A stretch of 63,433 nt of DNA, filler included, from Stramenopiles sp. TOSAG23-3 (taxonomy: Eukaryota), in the NCBI GenBank assembly GCA_900128585.1. It is 47 parts of 47 records of this genome, joined end to end, with 100 filler letters (N's around TTAATTAATTAA, not from the genome) between each part and the next. Parts side by side here need not be neighbours in the genome. Positions count along the whole stretch, not along the records: positions 21,739 to 22,994 come from LT646160.1; 46 more parts are not named here. One strand, given 5' to 3'. A program made the position numbers and the translations under genes. A model generated the notes under the pieces. The model ran no database searches. It saw only the letters and a list, made by a program, of their open reading frames with translations, and was not told the origin of the DNA. Positions 3,985 through 58,061 of this stretch are shown piece by piece; within the stretch, counting starts at the first letter, position 1, and each line of letters starts with the position of its first letter.

Positions 3985-5074
3985 TNNNNNNNNNNNNNNN
4001 NNNNNNNNNNNNNNNNNNNNNNNNNNNNNTTAATTAATTAANNNNNNNNNNNNNNNNNNNNNNNNNNNNNNNNNNNNNNNNNNNNTCAACAAACGTGCCC
4101 TGTGTGTATGTGTAGTAGGAGCAGAAGTAGTCGCCGGCCGTAGGTTGGTATGTCTGCCCGGTGCACAAGACGAAGCAGCTAGGCTAGGTATGAAATTTCC
4201 GATCCGTCCGTCCGTCCGTCCGTCAACCGAAACAAATTTAAAAAACAACCAAATGCACCAAACCAAACCAAACTCAACTGCGCATACAAAACAAACACAA
4301 ACACAAACGAATACGGACACCAAACCCAAAACCAAATCCAAAACCGAATTCCAAGACCAAATCCAAACGATCGATTGTTCGTCAACTGAACCTTCCCATG
4401 CCTTTCAAACGTATCCATTAAGAAAGAAAAGAAAAGAAAAGAAAGAAAAAAGAATAACGTACTTCATCACATATAAGGTAAGATATACACAATATATTTT
4501 AAAACCAATGAAAGAAAGAAAGAAAGAATGAATAAAACAACGAATTCATGACTAAAGAAAAGAAACGAAAAGAAAAGAAAGACATCAACGTTCCTTAAAC
4601 AATGAATTGGATACAAAAACAAAACGTTTATTTAAGTAGACAATGCTGTGTTCCTATTATTAAAGGAATCGAACACGACACCCTATGCTGTGTGCATGGT
4701 AAAGAAATTTAGGGAAAAGGTAATCTATGCTCTGTATATGTTAAGAAATTGTACCTTTCCTTGTGTCCATGTTGGAACGATGGAATTGGTTTAAATTCAA
4801 TTCTAATGTTTGTTACATTTTAAATTTGATGTTTAGTGGATGATTCATTATTGTTAGGATATAATAAAAAGGAAAGAGTGTTAGGATTAATTCAATACTA
4901 TATGTAATGCTTAACACCTTCTTCGTTCTTTCAAGGTTTCTGATTGGTGGTTCAGATAATACATAGACATAGCATTGGATCAACGAATAAATGAAGGAAG
5001 GAATAGAAGAATAGCATTGAATGATAGGGTAATATAGTAATTTAGAATACTATTCGTTCATTATAAGTATGTGT

Positions 5075-5326
5075 TCTTTTTTCCTTCCTTTTCTTTCTTC
5101 TTCTTCTTCTTCTTTCTTTTAATTCTTCTTCTTTCTTCTTTCTTCTTTCTTCTTTCTTCTTCTTCTTCTTTCTTCTTTCTTTCTTCTTCTTCTTTCTTCT
5201 TCTTCTTCTTTCTTCTTTCTTTCTTCTTCTTCTTTCTTCTTCTTTCTTCTTTCTTCTTCTTCATTCTCTTCTTCTTTCTCTTCTTCTTTCTCTTCTTCTT
5301 TCTTCGTTCTCTTTCTTTCTTCTTTT
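5075..5326. repeat. Polypyrimidine (TTC/TTTC) low-complexity tract
   Basis: ~250 nt almost exclusively T and C. Confidence 0.95.
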
Positions 5327-16313: not shown

Positions 16314-17570
16314 CAATGATTGTAACGAATCATTCTCAATTAACTCAAGAAGACATTGACAACCAACATTACCAATCTTATTACCAGACAAAAAAAGTCC
16401 ATTCAGCATTGGAATAGCAGGAACAACATTACTCAATACAGCTAGACCTTCATCTCCTATATTGTTGTTACCCAAACCAAGCCTCTCCAAGTTTGGCATT
16501 GTTCTTAAGACCGGAGCGATTGTTCGGCAGCCTTCATCGGTGATCGATTTGGAATAAAGATTCAACGTTCCAGTGAACCCCTCGCCTTGCTTCATCTGGT
16601 CCGCCATAGCCTTCCCGACGACCCTTTCCACGGCCTCTTCCTCGGCCTTCCGGATCGCTTCGGCCTCTTCCTCTGCTTTGGCCTTTCGGATCGCTTCGGC
16701 CTCTTCCTCTGCTTTGGCCTTTCGGATCGCTTCGGCCTCTTCCTTGAACTTCTGGATCGCTTCGGCCATCTTCCGGATCGTCTTGGCATTTTCCATGGCC
16801 ATCTTCTCGGCCTCTTCCTTGGACTTCTGGATCGCTTCGGCCATCTTCCGGATTGTCTTGGCATTTTCCATGGCCATCTTGGTGGTCTTCTTGGCCTCTT
16901 CCTTGGCCTTCCGTTTCGCCTCTTCCCTAACCTTCCGGGTCTTCTCGGCATTTTCCTGGGCCTTCCGGATCGCCTCGGCCTCTTTTTCTGCCGTGGCCTT
17001 CCGTTTCGCCTCTGCCTCTTCTTCGGCTGTGCGGTTCGCCTCTTCCTCGGCCTTAGCCTTCCGCATCGCCTCTTCCTCGGCCTCGGCCTTCCGGATCGCC
17101 TCTTCTTCGGCCTCTGCCTTCCGGACCGCCTCTGCCTCTTCCTCGGCATTCCTCAACCAGCGCTCCTGTACAGCCGTTCCACCGGTCTGAAACAGTTCCA
17201 ACGCAAGGACCCCTTGGACCCGGCAAAGATCTTTCTCCAGCTGCTCCCGTGTCTCCGCGCAGTTCTCTGTCCACGCCGTGCACGCCTTGACCGACGCGGC
17301 CACCAACGCCCCGTCCACCATCGGTTTGGCCGCAACGTCAAGTATGCACCCCATCACGGCGTCAGCCACCGCCTTGGAGTCTACAACAATACGACCGGTG
17401 TGAGATTTAGGATTAATCGTTCGCGACGCTAGTGCACAGATGCTTGCGCGGCAGCATTTTGCCACATCGCGTTTGAGCATCTCCATTTTCCCTTTCAGGG
17501 CTGCCTTTGCGTTGGCAAGGATGATCTCGAGAAACGCGTCGAACCGTCCGATTCTCGCCGTCGTCCCGCC
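16314..17570 (-). CDS. Coiled-coil repeat plus RI-like (NLRC3-type) LRR protein, partial
   Basis: AEEEAEAIRKA repeats, then LNLYSKSITDEGC, LERLGLGNNNIGDEGL, LFLSGNKIGNVGC; frame open across the whole contig. Confidence 0.85.
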
Positions 17571-21738: not shown

Positions 21739-22994
21739 ACAGGATGCCAAGCATGTAAATTTGAGGGATTAAACGACGATTTAAAAGGCGAATTACTATA
21801 TGTTCTAAAAGGTAGCACAGCAACGTACAAATGGGAAGGGGGAGCGTTTGATCCAACCTGGCCAAGAGACGAAGTTTTGAAATGGGGCGGAGATAACAAA
21901 CATTCGACCTTTACAAAAGACACTGTTCGTGCTGGTTGTCCTTCTTATGGTTTATGGGAATGCAAGGCAAGCGAAGCAGACGGTGGACCGCATCGATGGC
22001 TAGCTACAATTAAAAACCGCACAAAACATGGTTCAGGATGCCAAGCATGTAAATTTGAGGGATTAAACGACGAATTAAAAGGCGAATTACTATATGTTCT
22101 AAAAGGTAGCAAAGCAACGTACAAATGGGAAGGGGGAGCGTTTGATCCAACCTGGCCAAGAGAGAAAGTTTTGAAATGGGGCGTAGATAACAAACATTCG
22201 ACCATTACAAAAGACACTGTTGGTGCTGGTAGTCCTTCTTATGGTTTATGGGAATGCAAGGCAAGCGAAGCAGATGGTGGACCGCATCGATGGCTAGCTA
22301 AAATTTACAGCCGCACAAAACAGGGTCAAGGATGCCAAGCATGTAAATTTGAGGGATTAAACGATGATTTAAAAGGCGAATTACTATATGTTCTAAACGG
22401 TCGCACAGCAACGCACAAATGGGAAGGGGGAGCGTTTGATCCAAACTGGCCAAGAGACAAAGTTTTGAAATGGGGCGTAGATAACAAACATTCGACCTTT
22501 ACAAAAGACACTGTTGGTGCTGGTAGTCGTTTTTATGGTTTATGGGAATGCAAGGCAAGCGAAGCAGATGGTGGACCGCATCGATGGCCAGCTCTAATTC
22601 AAAACCGCACACAACGGGGTGACGGATGCCCAGCATGTAAATTTGAGGGATTAAACGACGATTTAAAAGGCGAATTACTATATGTTCTAAAAGGTAGCAA
22701 AGCAACGTACGAATGGGAAGGGGGAGCGTTTGATCCAAACTGGCCAAGAGAGAAAGTTTTGAAATGGGGCGTAGATAACAAACATTCGACCTTTACAAAA
22801 GACACTGTTAGTGTTGGTATGCATTATTATGGTTTATGGGAATGCAAGGCAAGCGAAGCAGATGGTGGACCGCATCGATGGCCAGCTCAAATTTTAAACC
22901 GCGCAAAACATGGTAACGGATGCCCAGAGTGCTGTTTCCTCGGCACACGATTTACCCGCCAAACATTCCGTCGCATGGTTCAATCATTACTTCC
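21739..22994 (+). CDS. Tandem treble-clef zinc-ribbon (DUF4379-like) repeat protein, partial at both ends
   Basis: Each 98-aa unit has GLWECK...HRWxAxIxxRxxxGxGCxxC, the W-x-C...H-x-W...R...GCxxC pattern of this family. Confidence 0.85.
21742..22917 (+). repeat. 294-bp coding tandem repeat, four complete units
   Basis: GGATGC unit starts at 21742, 22036, 22330, 22624 and 22918 (exact 294-nt period). Confidence 0.98.
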
Positions 22995-33921: not shown

Positions 33922-35169
33922 GATTGACCGGGCAACCTTTACCCTTGGCCTTGAAATGTAGTTGTCCTGGATCAGGCGGACGCTTTCGTACATCCCGTCG
34001 AACTGCAGGCAAAACGTGCGCCACTGCCTCGCGTCTTCAATATCGTCTATCTTCACCGCACGTTTGGGGGAAAGTAGGGGTGCGCGTATACCCTCGGAGT
34101 TCAAAATAGCCTTGAAACCGGGAAGCCCTGGCCGTTGTTCTATTTCTGCTGCCTCCATATCGTCCTCACCGATGGTGGAGGGGGCCACATCCGTGCTAAA
34201 TGCGTGGGTGCCGCCCTCGTCCACCAGCTTCGGGCCAGCGGCCCCGGAGGCATCCTGGCGGTTCTCTATCGTTGCGTAATATGCCCATAAGTCCATTTGC
34301 ACGAGCGAGGAAAATTCTTTGTCAGACCGTTCCACAGTCATTGCAACAGCGTCGTCACTGATGTGCAGGTCAGACTGCCGTTCCACGGCTCTTGCCCTAG
34401 CGAGCACGTCCTCCTTAGGGGCAACCACGTGCACAGCGACGAATTCGTACTGCGGGTACGTCTCCCGAAGGCGTACAAACCACTCTTTGCACCAGTCGCT
34501 AGACGCCAGAGACGAAGAGAAGGCCACGCTCTTTTTGCATGACATAGCCTCCTGGACGGCGATCTCTGCAATAAACCCGGCTTCCTTCGACGTCTTTTTG
34601 AACGCGAGCAACTTTTTCATTGGGTCTTGAAGAAGCAGTTTTGTTTCGGGGATCTGCAGCGTGATCTGCTGCGTGTCTATCCATACGAACGCCTCAAGAG
34701 GCAGCCGCCCATACCGGTTCAATGCTTTCATTGCATGCGCCTTTCCCGCCCCGAGCCCACCGACGAGCAGCAGAAATACAGGCTTCTCCGTCGGGATGCC
34801 CGAGCGGACGATGTTGCTCACCATTTGATCCTGCAGCTGCTGCCTCGATCGCATATAGACCCCGTGGTACCCAACGTCAACCGTCGAGCGGGCACGGACG
34901 AATGGCCCGTACCACAATTTTTGGTTTGACAGTGCAGTACCAGAGGTCCCAGCTTTTAGCGCGTCTTTTCGAGTAATGCTTGCATACGCATCGCACGTGT
35001 CCATTTCGTTGTTGTACATGATCTCGACGTCACAAGTGTCCGTCAGTCGAGTAAGGGTTGAGGCCAGCGGGTAACACAGGCCTGGTTTTACCAAAATTTC
35101 GACCGGTTTCTTCGTGACCTGCCGAATCAAACCGTAACGACCCAGCCTCGTGGTCGTGTACTCTGCCAC
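33922..35169 (-). CDS. Zeta-toxin-like P-loop domain protein, partial
   Basis: VDVGYHGVY..SRQQLQD, FLLLVGGLGAGKAH, FVWID, KEAGFIAEIAVQEA, VHVVAPKEDVLARA. Confidence 0.8.
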
Positions 35170-37484: not shown

Positions 37485-37588
37485 TTCTTTTTTTCTTCTT
37501 CTCTTCTTTCTTCTTTTCTTTCTTCTTCTTTATCTTCTTCTTCTTTATCTTCTTCTTCTTTATCTTCTTTCTTTCTTTCTTTCTTTCT

Positions 37589-37629
<41 letters not shown>

Positions 37630-37850
37630 TTTTCTTTCTTCTTTTATCTTCTTCTTCTTTCTTCTTTTATCTTCTTCTTCTTTCTTTCTTTCGTTCGTTC
37701 TTTCTTTCTTTCTTTCTTTCTTTCTTTTGTTTTCTTCTTCCTCTTCTTTCTTTCTTGCGTTTTGCGCTCTTTCTTTCTTCTTTTTCTTTTTCTTCTTCTT
37801 CTTTCTTTCTTCTTCTTCTTCTTTTTTTAATTATTTTTCCTTCTTCATTT
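37485..37850. repeat. Polypyrimidine (TTC/TTTC) low-complexity tract
   Basis: ~360 nt dominated by T and C. Confidence 0.95.
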
Positions 37851-48750: not shown

Positions 48751-49995
48751 TGGGACAACCCGTTCGTGAAGACGGAAATTACGGGAAGCACGTTGAAGAA
48801 AAGGGCGAAAATGCAGTTCAACTCTGGGCTGTACGAGGAGGCCATCGAGACGTACGAGAAAATTTTGAACGATCCGAAACTGTTGTATAGAGTGGAAACG
48901 AGGGCGGGGGGCAAGAGCGTTGGGGTGGGCGACGCCGGGGCCGACAAGAAAATAGGAGTAGACGATGGGAATTTCTACCGGACAAAGGGGCAGTGCCACT
49001 TCTACATTTACAAGAAAGATGACAGTAGCAAGAACGTACAGAAAGCGTTGGAGTGCTACCAAAAGGCAATCGACGAGCTGAACTTTGTAGACCCAGAGGT
49101 GCTGTGCGAGGCGGCCGAAGTGTACCGGCGCCACAACGCGCACGAGGGTGCCCTGGTCCTGTACGGGACGGTCATCGAGCACTTTCCGCGCTTCAAGGGC
49201 ATCACGACCGCGGCAATGAACGCCGTCTGCTGCATGTTTCGCACCGGCACGTTGGACCAAGCCACGGACTACCTGTTCTGGTTGGCCGATGCTCCGCCCC
49301 CAGGCGTGCCCGAGGACGTCCTCTACCTACTAGCGGCCCGGGTCTACGAGCTGATCGGGAGGGAAGACCTCGCCGCGATGGGGTTTGAGGACCTCTTCCA
49401 GCGCAAGAAAGCGCAGGGCCTCACGCAAATGCACGACAACTGGGCGACCTGGCGCGACGACGCGGAGCTGTGGCGGCAGTGCAGCGAGCTGTTTTTAGAG
49501 TTAGAGATGTACGAGCTGTTGGACCACTGCAATGCCCAAACGTTTAGATGCTCCCCCTTTCACACGGGGAGCTTTTTCGCCCACTGGGCGCACACCAACT
49601 CTCTGATGGGGGACACTGCGACGGCCGAAAAGCACTTGAGGAGTATTTTCAAGGGAGAATTCATCAAGGATGCGTGCGACTCAAAGCGCACGATTACCTC
49701 GCAGGCCGACCGCGACAGCGAGCGGGGGGGCAAGTACGGCAAGCCGCTGACGGGGGAACATTTAGAGATTTTAAACATTGTGGAGAAGAGCGAGTTCATG
49801 CGAAGGTACATACAGAAACGGGTGACCCTGGCCGATCTGAACGCCCGCCAAATCATGGAACAGGAGCTGATGGCTCAGGCGGAGGTGGAAACAAAGTGGT
49901 TCCTGACGGAGCTTAAGATTTGGACCAACGGGATCAAAATCTGCGCGTACGCGCGCGGCCACCTGGCGAGAAACTACCGCCGGAAGGCCTACAAG
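48751..49995 (+). CDS. TPR-like helical repeat protein with probable C-terminal IQ motif, partial
   Basis: GLYEEAIETYEKIL, ALECYQKAI; ICAYARGHLAR at the end. Confidence 0.75.
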
Positions 49996-51531
49996 NNNNN
50001 NNNNNNNNNNNNNNNNNNNNNNNNNNNNNNNNNNNNNNNTTAATTAATTAANNNNNNNNNNNNNNNNNNNNNNNNNNNNNNNNNNNNNNNNNNNNCCGTT
50101 CCAGGGCCTTCTTCCCTTTCCCCTCCTCTACGTCTGTCGTCTTTGAACTACCAATGGTATTCCCACTCTCGGTGGGACCCGGCAACGCCGCCATTTGCTC
50201 AGCAGCTCTAAGGTCTAAGTAAGTACACTGACAACGAACGAATTCTCTTTCGTTCTTCCAGAAATCAAAGCGAAAGGTCCCAACAATCAACCAATCGTTC
50301 TAAATAAAAAAAAAGCAACAATTACCTTCTTTATTTCTTATACCTTCTTGTTTTTCTTTCTATCTTTTTTCCATCATCAAAAATTACACAGAGAAGGAAC
50401 GGGAAAAAAAAGAGAAAGAAAGAAAGAAAGAGTGAAAGAAAGAAAGAAAGAAAGAGTGAAAGAGAGAGAGAAAGAAAGAGAGAGAGAAAGAAAGAGAGAG
50501 AGAAAGAAAGAAAGAAAGAAAGAAACCGATAAGCTATAGCTATTATTATTATTATAACAAATAAATTATTAAATAAAAAAGTCGATTTTTTTTTAATTAT
50601 TATTATTATTTTTTATCTTCTCTTCTTCTTCTTTTTTAGATATTCTTTTTTTTTTATACATTACATAACAATACCATCGAGAAGAAGTTTAATTTTTACG
50701 TAATAATACATTTTTTTTATTTTTTTTTAGAGAAGAAAAGAAGAAGAAGAAGAGGAGGAGGATCGATGAAGAGGGAAGAAGAAGAAGAAGATAAAAAATA
50801 AAATCTATGCTGTGTCTATATTATTAATAAAATTACCCAAAAGAGTGCGAATCTGGAAATCGAATTAATTATTTCATCATTAGAAGAGAATAGCATGGAC
50901 TTCTTTTTTTTTAAAGCGTCGTCGGTCGTCGTGTATTGGAATGTTGGTTACATTTTATTATTCAATGCTATTTCATATTATTCTCCTCCGCGATATTTTT
51001 AGACAAAAAGAAAATTGCGGAAAAAAAAAAAAAACTTCATATATAATCATAGTATTAATACTATACTAATTAATATAAAAGTATATATTATATAGGTAAA
51101 ATATTATCCTTCAGCCGGGTCTTTCATTTTATTAAAGAGCTGGCTTATTATATTAGATCGACTATTTATAAGGACTAATAGTTTTTTAGATACGTATTTT
51201 CATATTAGAATACTATATATACATTTTAACTATAATTAAAATAACGAATCAATTTAAAAGACCAAATAATCCACCTACAATTAAGGATATATTTCTATAT
51301 GTGATTTTATATGCTATGTGTATATAAAAGAGGTATATTTCNNNNNNNNNNNNNNNNNNNNNNNNNNNNNNNNNNNNNNNNNNNNTTAATTAATTAANNN
51401 NNNNNNNNNNNNNNNNNNNNNNNNNNNNNNNNNNNNNNNNNTATGTTAACGTACATAACTTTTTAATTACGCAAAATTTTAATTATAAACCTATACTCGA
51501 ACGTAAGTTCACGTCCCGTAGAAGATGCCTA

Positions 51532-56820: not shown

Positions 56821-58061
56821 TTTGAACCAGGTGAAGATTCTAATGTCTTTGATCAAGTGGCAAAAGATTTTGAAAAGCCATATCCAGAAGTGCTAACGTT
56901 GCAGCCTGGCGATATGGTGACTGTATATAAAAAAGGGTTAGGACTAATTTCACATGGATGGTGTTCTGGAGAAATTTTTGGTCATCGAGGTATATTTCCT
57001 CAAGATATACTGGATGCAACTGATGTACATGCACAAATGCATCAGCGTAGTGCAGAAATTGCAATGAAAAAACAAATGTTAGAAAATGAAAAAGATGAAC
57101 TAGAATGGGAAAAAGAACAAGAATATATGAAAGAATGTACGTTTACACCGAATATTAGAAAGACTAATATGAATGTCTATATTACGTTGCCCGTCGTACG
57201 AGATTTTACACGTGAAGATTTAGCACGGTTTAATAATGAATTTAACAGCGATGAACATGTACCATTAATTGTACTTACGGGGCAAATGGTTAAAATTTTA
57301 AAAAAAGGCTTAGGAACAAGTAAAAACTGGTATTATGCGCAAACGCGAGACAAGTTAAATCATAAAGGGTATTTACCATATCGTTGCATTGATCATCATG
57401 GGCATACGCATACAATGCATGCACTTGATCGAAAAAAAGCAATAGAAATCAGTAAATTAAGAAGTGAAAAAGCTGAAGCGGAGTCGCAAATTTATACATT
57501 TCAACCTAAAATAAATAAAAGAAGACAAGAAATGTATTTACCGGCAGATTATAAACGTGCAAGAAGATTGCGTGAAGAGAAAAGACGATTAAGAGAATTA
57601 AAAGAAGCAAATAAGGAACTAACATTTCAACCGAACATATATCGCCCGACTCGAGCAAAAATAGATACAAATGTCAGAATTATTCCTGATCCTACACAAA
57701 TTGAAAAAACTATCGATGTATATGAAGAACTTTTTGGCGAACCAAAAGCGAAACGTGTAGCACCGTCACATGTAAAAGACAGGTTAAAAGAACGAACGAA
57801 TTTAGGATTAAAAAAAGCTTTTGTGACAAAAAATTTTAAATTCTCACGGCCTGGTGCTGCGGTAGAAGTTTTAATTGCAGATTTTGGTTTAAAACATCCT
57901 GTACCCTTGGAATTGTACGTTGGCGATAAAGTAACTGTCCTTGAACATGGTGTTGGAAATAATGGGAAATGGACATTAGGTCATCTAGGTAATATTACAG
58001 GAGTTTTTCCTACAACTTGTATAAAACCAAATAGAAATAATAAAAAAAATAATAACAACAA
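56821..58061 (+). CDS. Multi-SH3 protein with TFxPxI repeats, partial
   Basis: Three SH3-like units (LTLQPGDMVTV..GWCSG..RGIFP; LTGQMVKI..WYYA..KGYLP; LELYVGDKVTV..KWTLG..TGVFP) and ECTFTPNI/YTFQPKI/ELTFQPNI. Confidence 0.85.

Follow-up and report, generated by a model that had tools for sequence, protein, structure and literature searches.

The window analysed in this study, a stretch of 63,433 bases from the genome assembly of Stramenopiles sp. TOSAG23-3 (GCA_900128585.1), consists of 47 unrelated contigs, which are arranged in descending order of length from 1262 to 1243 nt and joined by N44-TTAATTAATTAA-N44 spacers. One of these contigs (21739–22994) carries the element in question, a tandem array of near-identical zinc-finger modules of the DUF4379 family. 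Because the window concatenates unrelated contigs, adjacent window features give no genomic context for the array. The whole contig (21739..22994, + strand) is an internal open reading frame (ORF) fragment of 1256 nt in frame 1 (P0001); this frame was open across 418 of 418 codons, and also at both contig ends.

An earlier note on this DNA had described four near-identical 294-bp (98-aa) units, and Tandem Repeats Finder (TRF) found the same (period 294, 4.0 copies, 93% matches, zero indels, score 2025), with 91.8–94.9% nucleotide identity between unit pairs. In the phase of that note, the tandem 294-nt (98-codon) units lie at 21739–22032, 22033–22326, 22327–22620, and 22621–22914 on the + strand. 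With this phase, each zinc finger is split between two units. The natural module instead spans residues 8 (F) to 105, and natural modules 1–4, delimited using the secondary structure predicted by AlphaFold2 (AF2) and the Pfam DUF4379 match, occupy 21760..22053, 22054–22347, 22348–22641, and 22642–22935 (+ strand). The Zn ligands of unit 1 are Cys at codon 75 (21961..21963, + strand) and His at codon 85 (21991–21993), followed by the CxxC whose cysteines are codons 3 and 6 in the next unit (22039–22041 and 22048–22050), and this arrangement is repeated in every unit. C75, H85, C3, and C6 were invariant across the four units, as had been claimed, and across the family alignments A1 and A2; the W and R of the DUF4379 core were also invariant in all of these. 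The repeat ends with the closing CxxC knuckle of the fourth finger (N-G-C-P-E-C; 22915..22932, + strand). It is followed by a non-repeat tail of 20 aa that ends in MVQSLL (22933..22992, + strand) and was predicted as a low-confidence helix.

Among the codon columns of the four units, 25 vary in amino acid and 2 vary silently only (GAC/GAT). The earlier note had given the same counts; its placing of the silent columns at codons 12 and 80 did not stand, as they are unit codons 13 and 81 when counted from the contig's first codon. The clustering of the variation in two patches also held, with the numbering one too low. Variable patch A comprises codons 64–69 (21928..21945, + strand; copies at 22222–22239, 22516–22533, and 22810–22827), which read RAGCPS, GAGSPS, GAGSRF, and SVGMHY in the four units. 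Variable patch B comprises codons 88–98 and codon 1 of the next unit (22000..22035, + strand; copies at 22294–22329, 22588–22623, and 22882–22917), of which codons 88, 90, 92, 93, 95 (T/A), 96, 97, and 1 vary and A89, I91, R94, and G98 are constant. Four different residues in four units were found at codons 90, 92, and 1, a pattern that had been noticed under the numbers 89, 91, and 98. Nearly all multi-state differences are held by 13 of the 18 patch codons. The variants are shared as a mosaic: codons 27 and 44 split units 1 and 3 from units 2 and 4, while codons 40 and 88 split units 1 and 2 from units 3 and 4. Such mosaic sharing is the product expected of exchange between repeats, and the modules are homogenised through this exchange. 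The Ser of the "GS" motif, which is nearly invariant family-wide, is C, S, S, and M in the four units.

Selection on the variable codons

The four units differ at 35 variable nucleotide columns, which require at least 42 substitutions. At most 2 of the 42 minimal substitutions are silent, against a silent-site fraction of 0.213 (binomial P = 0.003), and the Nei–Gojobori ratio of nonsynonymous to synonymous substitution rates (dN/dS) was 2.1–7.5 for the unit pairs. The two-state variable columns comprise 19 transversions and 10 transitions. Within the two patches, that is, in 18 of the 98 codons, lie 28 of the 42 substitutions (10 in patch A and 18 in patch B). The richest 12-codon window contained 18 substitutions (P of ca. 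0.01 with permuted codon counts; 0 of 20000 draws under a multinomial null). The proportions of nonsynonymous and synonymous differences (pN and pS) were 0.32 and 0.04 in the patches (pN/pS 7.9), with zero silent-only patch codons, and pN/pS was 1.67 in the other 80 codons. The patches were defined from the same data, and their pN/pS is therefore descriptive, while the pooled and sliding-window tests are independent of this choice. Amino-acid changes in the array are thus excessive and clustered beyond chance.

We also carried out a family-wide test using an iterated core profile of DUF4379, which covered 611 units and 103 proteins with at least four units. Within these 103 proteins, identity between units averaged 0.24 over the 13 hypervariable columns, compared with 0.51 over the remaining 48 (Mann–Whitney P = 1.2e-4), and 9 of the 13 most variable columns of the family were the hypervariable ones of the window protein, when two edge columns without data were excluded. 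At the hypervariable columns, similarity between units was no greater within a protein than between proteins; at the other columns, it was greater within proteins by 0.1–0.3. The ligand and core columns had a family-wide identity of 0.88–1.00. The data from the four units support a PRDM9-like mode of evolution, in which the copies of a coding minisatellite evolve in concert and positive selection acts on a few of their positions.

DUF4379 modules, their predicted structure, and their relatives

The assignment of the units to DUF4379 proved correct. Pfam PF14311 (DUF4379, "probable treble clef zinc finger") matched in four stretches with 89.4 bits against a cut-off of 24.5 (E = 1.7e-25); the score exceeds the gathering threshold, and the core pattern W.C ... 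H.W ... R ... GC..C is present. The match covers the last ca. 55 aa of each module, and the 98-aa module consists of a helix-strand-loop extension of ca. 35 aa followed by a DUF4379 core of ca. 60 aa. Neither C2H2 nor SET families were found in the window protein at a Pfam E value of 1 or below. ApbE (25.4 bits, below its cut-off, with zero passing stretches), Fer2_BFD, and Phage_fiber_rpt were set aside as chance matches of a repetitive query.

An AF2 model of two modules had a mean confidence (pLDDT) of 89.3 and a predicted template modelling score (pTM) of 0.61, and a model of the whole fragment had a pLDDT of 83.1 and a pTM of 0.52. In both models, every module consists of a helix, a strand, a long loop, a helix, a hairpin with the Cys and His ligands, a helix, and the CxxC knuckle. 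Patch A is predicted to lie directly before the strand whose end carries the first Zn ligand. After H-x-W, a strand at 86–90 and then a seven-residue helix at 91–97 were predicted in all modules. Variation on this helix falls at codons 92, 93, 96, and 97 (+2, +3, +6, and +7), and it extends to codon 90 just ahead of the helix and to codon 1 behind it; the units share I at codon 91, R at 94, and G at 98, and codon 95 (T/A) was grouped with the constant face. From this codon spacing, the variable residues would lie on one face of helix 91–97, and the models fit an arrangement in which variable codons 92, 93, 96, and 97 and constant codons 91, 94, 95, and 98 occupy opposite faces.

A HMMER search of 1.84 billion representatives gave 388 matches at E ≤ 0.001, just one of which was below 1e-30. 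Among the 153 relatives retrieved, nine contained the extended module according to a profile (13 modules), and, apart from P0068, the others had the usual period of 60–70 aa. Extended-module proteins with 31–39% identity (P0011, P0068, P0006, P0007, P0012, P0024, P0052, P0089, and P0125) share with the window protein a module of ca. 85–98 aa with the pattern L..E.LFVLK...W..F...W....WG..NKH...T..TV..GS...LW.C...H.W.A.I..R...G.GC..C. They differ in that their partner domains are helicase-like or unassigned; the only close relatives of the window protein are P0005 (72%) and P0014 (66%). P0011, from a transcriptome of the cryptophyte Hemiselmis andersenii, has 1168 aa and three extended modules in the middle of the protein; its N-terminal region appeared helicase-like by eye only, and Pfam found DUF4379 alone. 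P0068 (2389 aa), which the extended-module profile missed, has ca. 12 extended modules by eye in front of a SNF2-like helicase. Word-index protein searches returned three distant bacterial arrays at near lengths, and P0005 and P0014 alone at shorter lengths. In ESM Atlas, DUF4379 clusters came from eukaryotes, Nucleocytoviricota, and bacteria. No relatives were found in IMG/VR scanned with peptide patterns from P0001, P0005, and P0014, and none is encoded by the other contigs of the 47-contig window. A scan of JGI metagenomes gave one locus (L001), which was a false lead, being a bacterial contig without a zinc-finger array.

When the predicted fold was compared with BFVD using Foldseek, six matches were obtained at E ≤ 1e-3: three giant-virus proteins named "restriction endonuclease", one named "treble clef zinc finger", and two without names. 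The best fold matches were giant-virus DUF4379 proteins (Marseillevirus, Lausannevirus, Barrevirus, and others; E of 1.3e-4 to 9e-4, probability 0.98–1.00), which combine an array with a nuclease; they are only 13–22% identical to the window protein, and the extended module is not evident in them. Weaker BFVD matches (E of 0.01–0.1) were a phage Hef-like homing endonuclease and CapR-homology proteins.

The array in other sequencing runs

A word index located portions of the stretch in 20 runs from 19 studies. Of these, a small run (X1), the likely source, contained 46% of the sampled words, 13 marine or seawater metagenomes contained 24–30%, and six RNA runs contained 12–18%. Contigs of four runs (X1, X2, X5, and X15) were aligned to the stretch. 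Every variable patch recurred letter for letter in X1 or in runs of other studies, with pieces of 0 differences in, for example, records 6, 7, and 8 of X1, records 11 and 13 of X2, and records 19, 22, and 25 of X5. Records 7 and 8 of X1 join unit 4 to the unique tail. X1 also contained a fifth junction variant absent from the contig. Therefore, the true array has more than four units, and their order is unverified. The full stretch was spanned by zero pieces in the four runs aligned.

The differences decoded from the four runs amounted to 33 changed codons, 29 amino-acid-changing and 4 silent. Two of the 29 changes were apparent stops, one in a contig with an indel and one at a contig end with an incomplete difference listing, and were not taken as real. 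Inside the two patches lay 24 of the 33 changed codons, with new residues at codons 92, 93, 97, 1, 67, and 68; the new states were found at patch A codons 67 and 68 in X2 and in patch B in X1, X2, and X5. In the RNA run X15, two contigs had 5 and 9 differences over 22618–22902; they derive from a relative, and DNA carry-over is possible.

A contig of X1 departs from the stretch before 21780, and its upstream letters translate to the N-terminal leader of P0005. P0005 (201 aa, 72% identical) begins with Met and passes after a leader of ca. 25 aa straight into two modules. Because the X1 contig joins the start of a module to this P0005-like leader, only a leader of ca. 25 aa precedes the array in at least one copy. 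The earlier suggestion of an effector domain upstream fails for that copy. At the other end, three contigs in the runs examined reach 226–681 nt past 22994 (358 nt in record 8 of X1, 226 nt in record 18 of X2, and 681 nt in record 26 of X5). In runs X1 and X2, contigs of a marine metagenome diverge from the array at 22013, 22044, and 22074 and continue in dissimilar sequence; therefore, related genes with other junctions exist in the sea. Read onward, one of these contigs gives a second form of the N-terminal leader.

Target recognition and the candidate nuclease

DUF4379 arrays of homing-type nucleases are known, and among known systems CapR/DUF4379 arrays with a Vsr-like nuclease come closest to the window protein. 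As described in one report (PMC12350094), three to five CapR/DUF4379/DUF723-like domains of ca. 60 aa precede an EDxHD/Vsr-like nuclease in phage introns of groups I and II; there, the authors regard these proteins as homing endonucleases that form a large group not recognised before, consider DNA binding by the domains "likely", and refer to thousands of unannotated UniProt matches. The EDxHD family, whose prototype is I-Bth0305I, includes the Hef type (PMC3239194). For marseilleviruses, a further paper (PMC5513546) gives four DUF4379 domains together with a restriction endonuclease domain. With Pfam, BFVD, and ESM Atlas, the excerpts of PMC12350094 and PMC5513546 bear out the earlier statement that DUF4379 modules occur in tandem in giant-virus and algal proteins, as well as in bacterial ones, often before PD-(D/E)xK/Vsr-like nucleases. 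The PLE satellite of Vibrio cholerae encodes CapR, whose binding to a specific site is lost in a four-Cys mutant (PMC8096241). CapR belongs to a related zinc-module class and is the only class member with experimental evidence; unlike the window protein, it is a single-domain repressor without a nuclease. The Pfam CapR family did not match the window protein at an E value of 1 or below, and the link runs via relatives such as P0002 and via the fold matches.

The window protein resembles the CapR/DUF4379–EDxHD/Vsr class in having at least three tandem treble-clef zinc modules (four complete fingers here), which in that class lie N-terminal to the effector; in a tail after the CxxC that resembles the start of a nuclease; and in fold matches that reach Hef-like and CapR-homology phage proteins. 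It differs in its 98-aa module with a ca. 35-aa extension instead of ca. 60 aa, its marine, eukaryote-type source, its near-identical modules with dN/dS above 1 at a few codons, and an Arg in place of a conserved Glu. The 98-aa extended and recently homogenised module with diversifying patches is new. In our literature search, which covered texts outside their supplements, hypervariable positions or dN/dS above 1 in DUF4379 arrays were not found described.

The tail is the part of the contig that bears on the effector. Its sequence is similar to G-T-S-Y-P-E-Q, with which the PD-(D/E)xK/Vsr-like domain downstream of DUF4379 arrays begins, and phmmer alignments extended into it for P0076, P0085, P0127, and P0144, in which the aligned segment is the first helix of a PD-(D/E)xK-type domain. 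In the AF2 model, the tail helix (407–417) had a pLDDT of 42–59. Among the relatives, DUF559 was above the cut-off in P0021 and REase_MTES_1575 matched weakly in P0008, P0085, and P0021; a D...EYDG..WH core after the last finger was found in 8 of the 150 proteins with a tight junction motif, and three bacterial arrays ended in a GIY-YIG-like tail by eye. From these sequence resemblances, a Vsr-like nuclease downstream of the array is our best guess, and about an even one.

Taken together, the array probably, though by no means securely, serves target recognition in a nuclease of the CapR/DUF4379 plus EDxHD/Vsr-like class, either homing-type or restriction-like, and would be retuned by repeat exchange. 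The contig would be an internal piece of a gene from a marine and probably eukaryotic organism, recovered in a single-cell or metagenome assembly. The gene would begin with a short leader at the N-terminus, continue with five or more tandem 98-aa modules, and end in a C-terminal domain past the contig. Each module would grip nucleic acid, most likely DNA, and the variable face of helix 91–97 (−1, +2, +3, +6, and +7) would, with patch A, set what the module recognises. The composite target would in turn be retuned as repeats are exchanged and selection diversifies them, much as in PRDM9 arrays. From its relatives, it is reasonable to infer that the array binds DNA.

The likeness to PRDM9 and TALE that the earlier note had proposed stands as an evolutionary signature, in that the units are homogenised and mosaic and carry the amino-acid-changing excess described above (P = 0.003; patch pN/pS 7.9). 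Membership is excluded because the module has neither a C2H2 fold nor a TALE repeat. In PRDM9 likewise, repeat exchange homogenises a coding tandem array, and positive selection acts on a few helix or near-helix positions. The window protein differs from it in having treble-clef C/H/CxxC fingers instead of C2H2 fingers and 294-nt instead of 84-nt units, in the absence of a PR/SET domain, and in lacking a known link to recombination. C2H2 fingers contact DNA at positions −1, 2, 3, and 6. TALE repeats are helical, 33–35 aa long, and carry a two-residue repeat-variable diresidue, whereas the unit here is a zinc-dependent mixed alpha/beta unit of 98 aa with ca. 13 variable codons. The observation made in the earlier note is thus confirmed, on a firmer footing than its four units by themselves would provide, and its interpretation partly supported; base reading by each module through its variable residues is hypothetical. 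An origin of the variation by mutagenesis of the diversity-generating retroelement (DGR) type was considered and dropped, as the variable bases are not confined to one base and the assembly looks eukaryotic.

Several points weigh against a retuned, DNA-reading nuclease array. The contig offers only four units for testing, and six single-pair Fisher tests of dN > dS were weak (P = 0.04–0.15). The hypervariable columns are the least conserved in the DUF4379 family, which fits specificity residues and equally an unconstrained surface, and near-identical module pairs in relatives gave modest support, with 3 of 6 differences in the patches in P0006 and 3 of 19 in P0011. Foldseek against PDB gave nothing at E ≤ 1e-3, and a sequence search of PDB gave 0 matches; therefore, no solved complex with DNA is available as a template. 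A kinetoplastid mitoribosomal protein was the top PDB fold match, short of significance (E = 0.015), and such weak matches make RNA binding possible. Both the order of the units and their number depend on the original assembly of short reads. The contig ends 20 aa past the array, with any nuclease core beyond its end; the tail carries Arg at a position occupied by Glu in 8 of 8 comparable junctions, and the junction motif was written to admit this Arg, which makes its match to the window protein one by construction. Helicases in relatives (P0068, and P0011 by eye) or GIY-YIG-like tails indicate that the effector could differ. Finally, the GC content at third codon positions (GC3) of the array, 0.32, is among the low values in a set of contigs that is very heterogeneous.

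Alternatively, the array could have arisen by recent tandem duplication under relaxed constraint, the variable codons being an unconstrained surface, the excess of amino-acid changes a small-sample effect, and no code being present. The weak conservation of the same columns across the family, the single-pair tests on only four units, and the pN/pS of 1.67 outside the patches all favour this explanation. We regard it as unlikely, given that the pooled test found at most 2 silent substitutions among 42 (P = 0.003), that the patches have a pN/pS of 7.9 and zero silent-only codons, and that several patch codons differ by two or three bases while their flanks are identical. The predominance of transversions (19 to 10) and the independent runs, which add states at the same codons with 29 changing and 4 silent differences, speak against it as well. 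The contig could instead be an assembly artefact, namely a chimeric de Bruijn path through paralogous or allelic units in an amplified single-cell or mixed sample. It does start and stop at branch points, its longest exact repeat is 68 nt, the Logan contigs of X1 break inside every unit, one of them with the fifth junction variant, and no aligned piece spans the full stretch. However, each variable patch was matched with 0 differences in X1 or in metagenomes of other studies, records 7 and 8 of X1 tie unit 4 to the unique tail, and P0005, from another record, has two tandem modules after its start codon. The variation and the excess of amino-acid changes would hold even if the unit order were wrong. 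We consider an artefact very unlikely.

The array may also recognise RNA or protein, as a helicase-linked or antiviral surveillance surface diversified in an arms race. P0068 is fused to a SNF2-like helicase and P0011 appears helicase-like by eye, a nuclease being seen in neither; the mitoribosomal proteins among the non-significant PDB matches point the same way, and in the contig a nuclease is not visible and the tail is without the conserved Glu. SNF2-type helicases, however, are DNA translocases. Moreover, most relatives examined carry DNA nucleases, and CapR, alone in its domain class in having been studied by experiment, binds DNA in a sequence-specific manner (PMC8096241). An RNA or protein target therefore seems improbable to us.

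DUF4379/CapR-type arrays of zinc modules before nucleases are very common and almost unstudied. For the retuned nuclease array proposed here, the nearly constant scaffold, the excess of amino-acid changes at a handful of codons, and the variability of the same columns in 103 arrays together give a short list of candidate specificity residues. The broader proposal that DUF4379/CapR modules form a natural modular code for nucleic-acid recognition in bacteria, giant viruses, and marine protists, in which one helix face (−1, +2, +3, +6, and +7) and the loop before the first ligand strand read a short DNA step and repeat exchange with diversifying selection retunes the arrays, is quite doubtful at present; were it true, the near-identical modules would offer a ready natural experiment for the code and a new programmable scaffold. 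Additive reading of DNA by the modules would place them alongside C2H2 fingers, TALE, and PUF/PPR repeats as one more modular system of recognition found in nature. If they are not additive readers, the contig would represent an ordinary fragment of a selfish nuclease with fast-evolving surface loops.

The other contigs of the window encode SH3, PPPDE-peptidase, LRR, TPR, and MFS_5 domains, and no Rfam families were found in the window. The GC3 of 21 ORF-filled contigs ranged from 0.20 (56821–58059) to 0.80 (48751–49995), and the host of the array is uncertain because the contigs are so heterogeneous in this respect. This spread may reflect several organisms in one assembly or a genome that is itself very heterogeneous; a mixed origin or an associated virus is conceivable. 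The MFS_5 transporter was 100% identical to proteins of metagenome collections (JGI, Logan, and ENA) and only ca. 42–50% identical to the named eukaryotes listed (apusomonads, amoebozoans, and stramenopiles). An uncultured marine eukaryote is accordingly the best reading of the assembly. An ORF filling its contig at 33922–35169 (− strand) has a Zeta_toxin (kinase-like) domain (E = 2.1e-10). The GC-rich contig at 16314–17570 (− strand) has one fully open frame with nested coding tandem repeats of 30–75 nt and a match to LRR_6. Long (TTC)n and (AGAA)n microsatellites at 5074–5325, 37485–37823, and 50413–50525 lie in AT-rich non-coding contigs, as in eukaryotic intergenic DNA.

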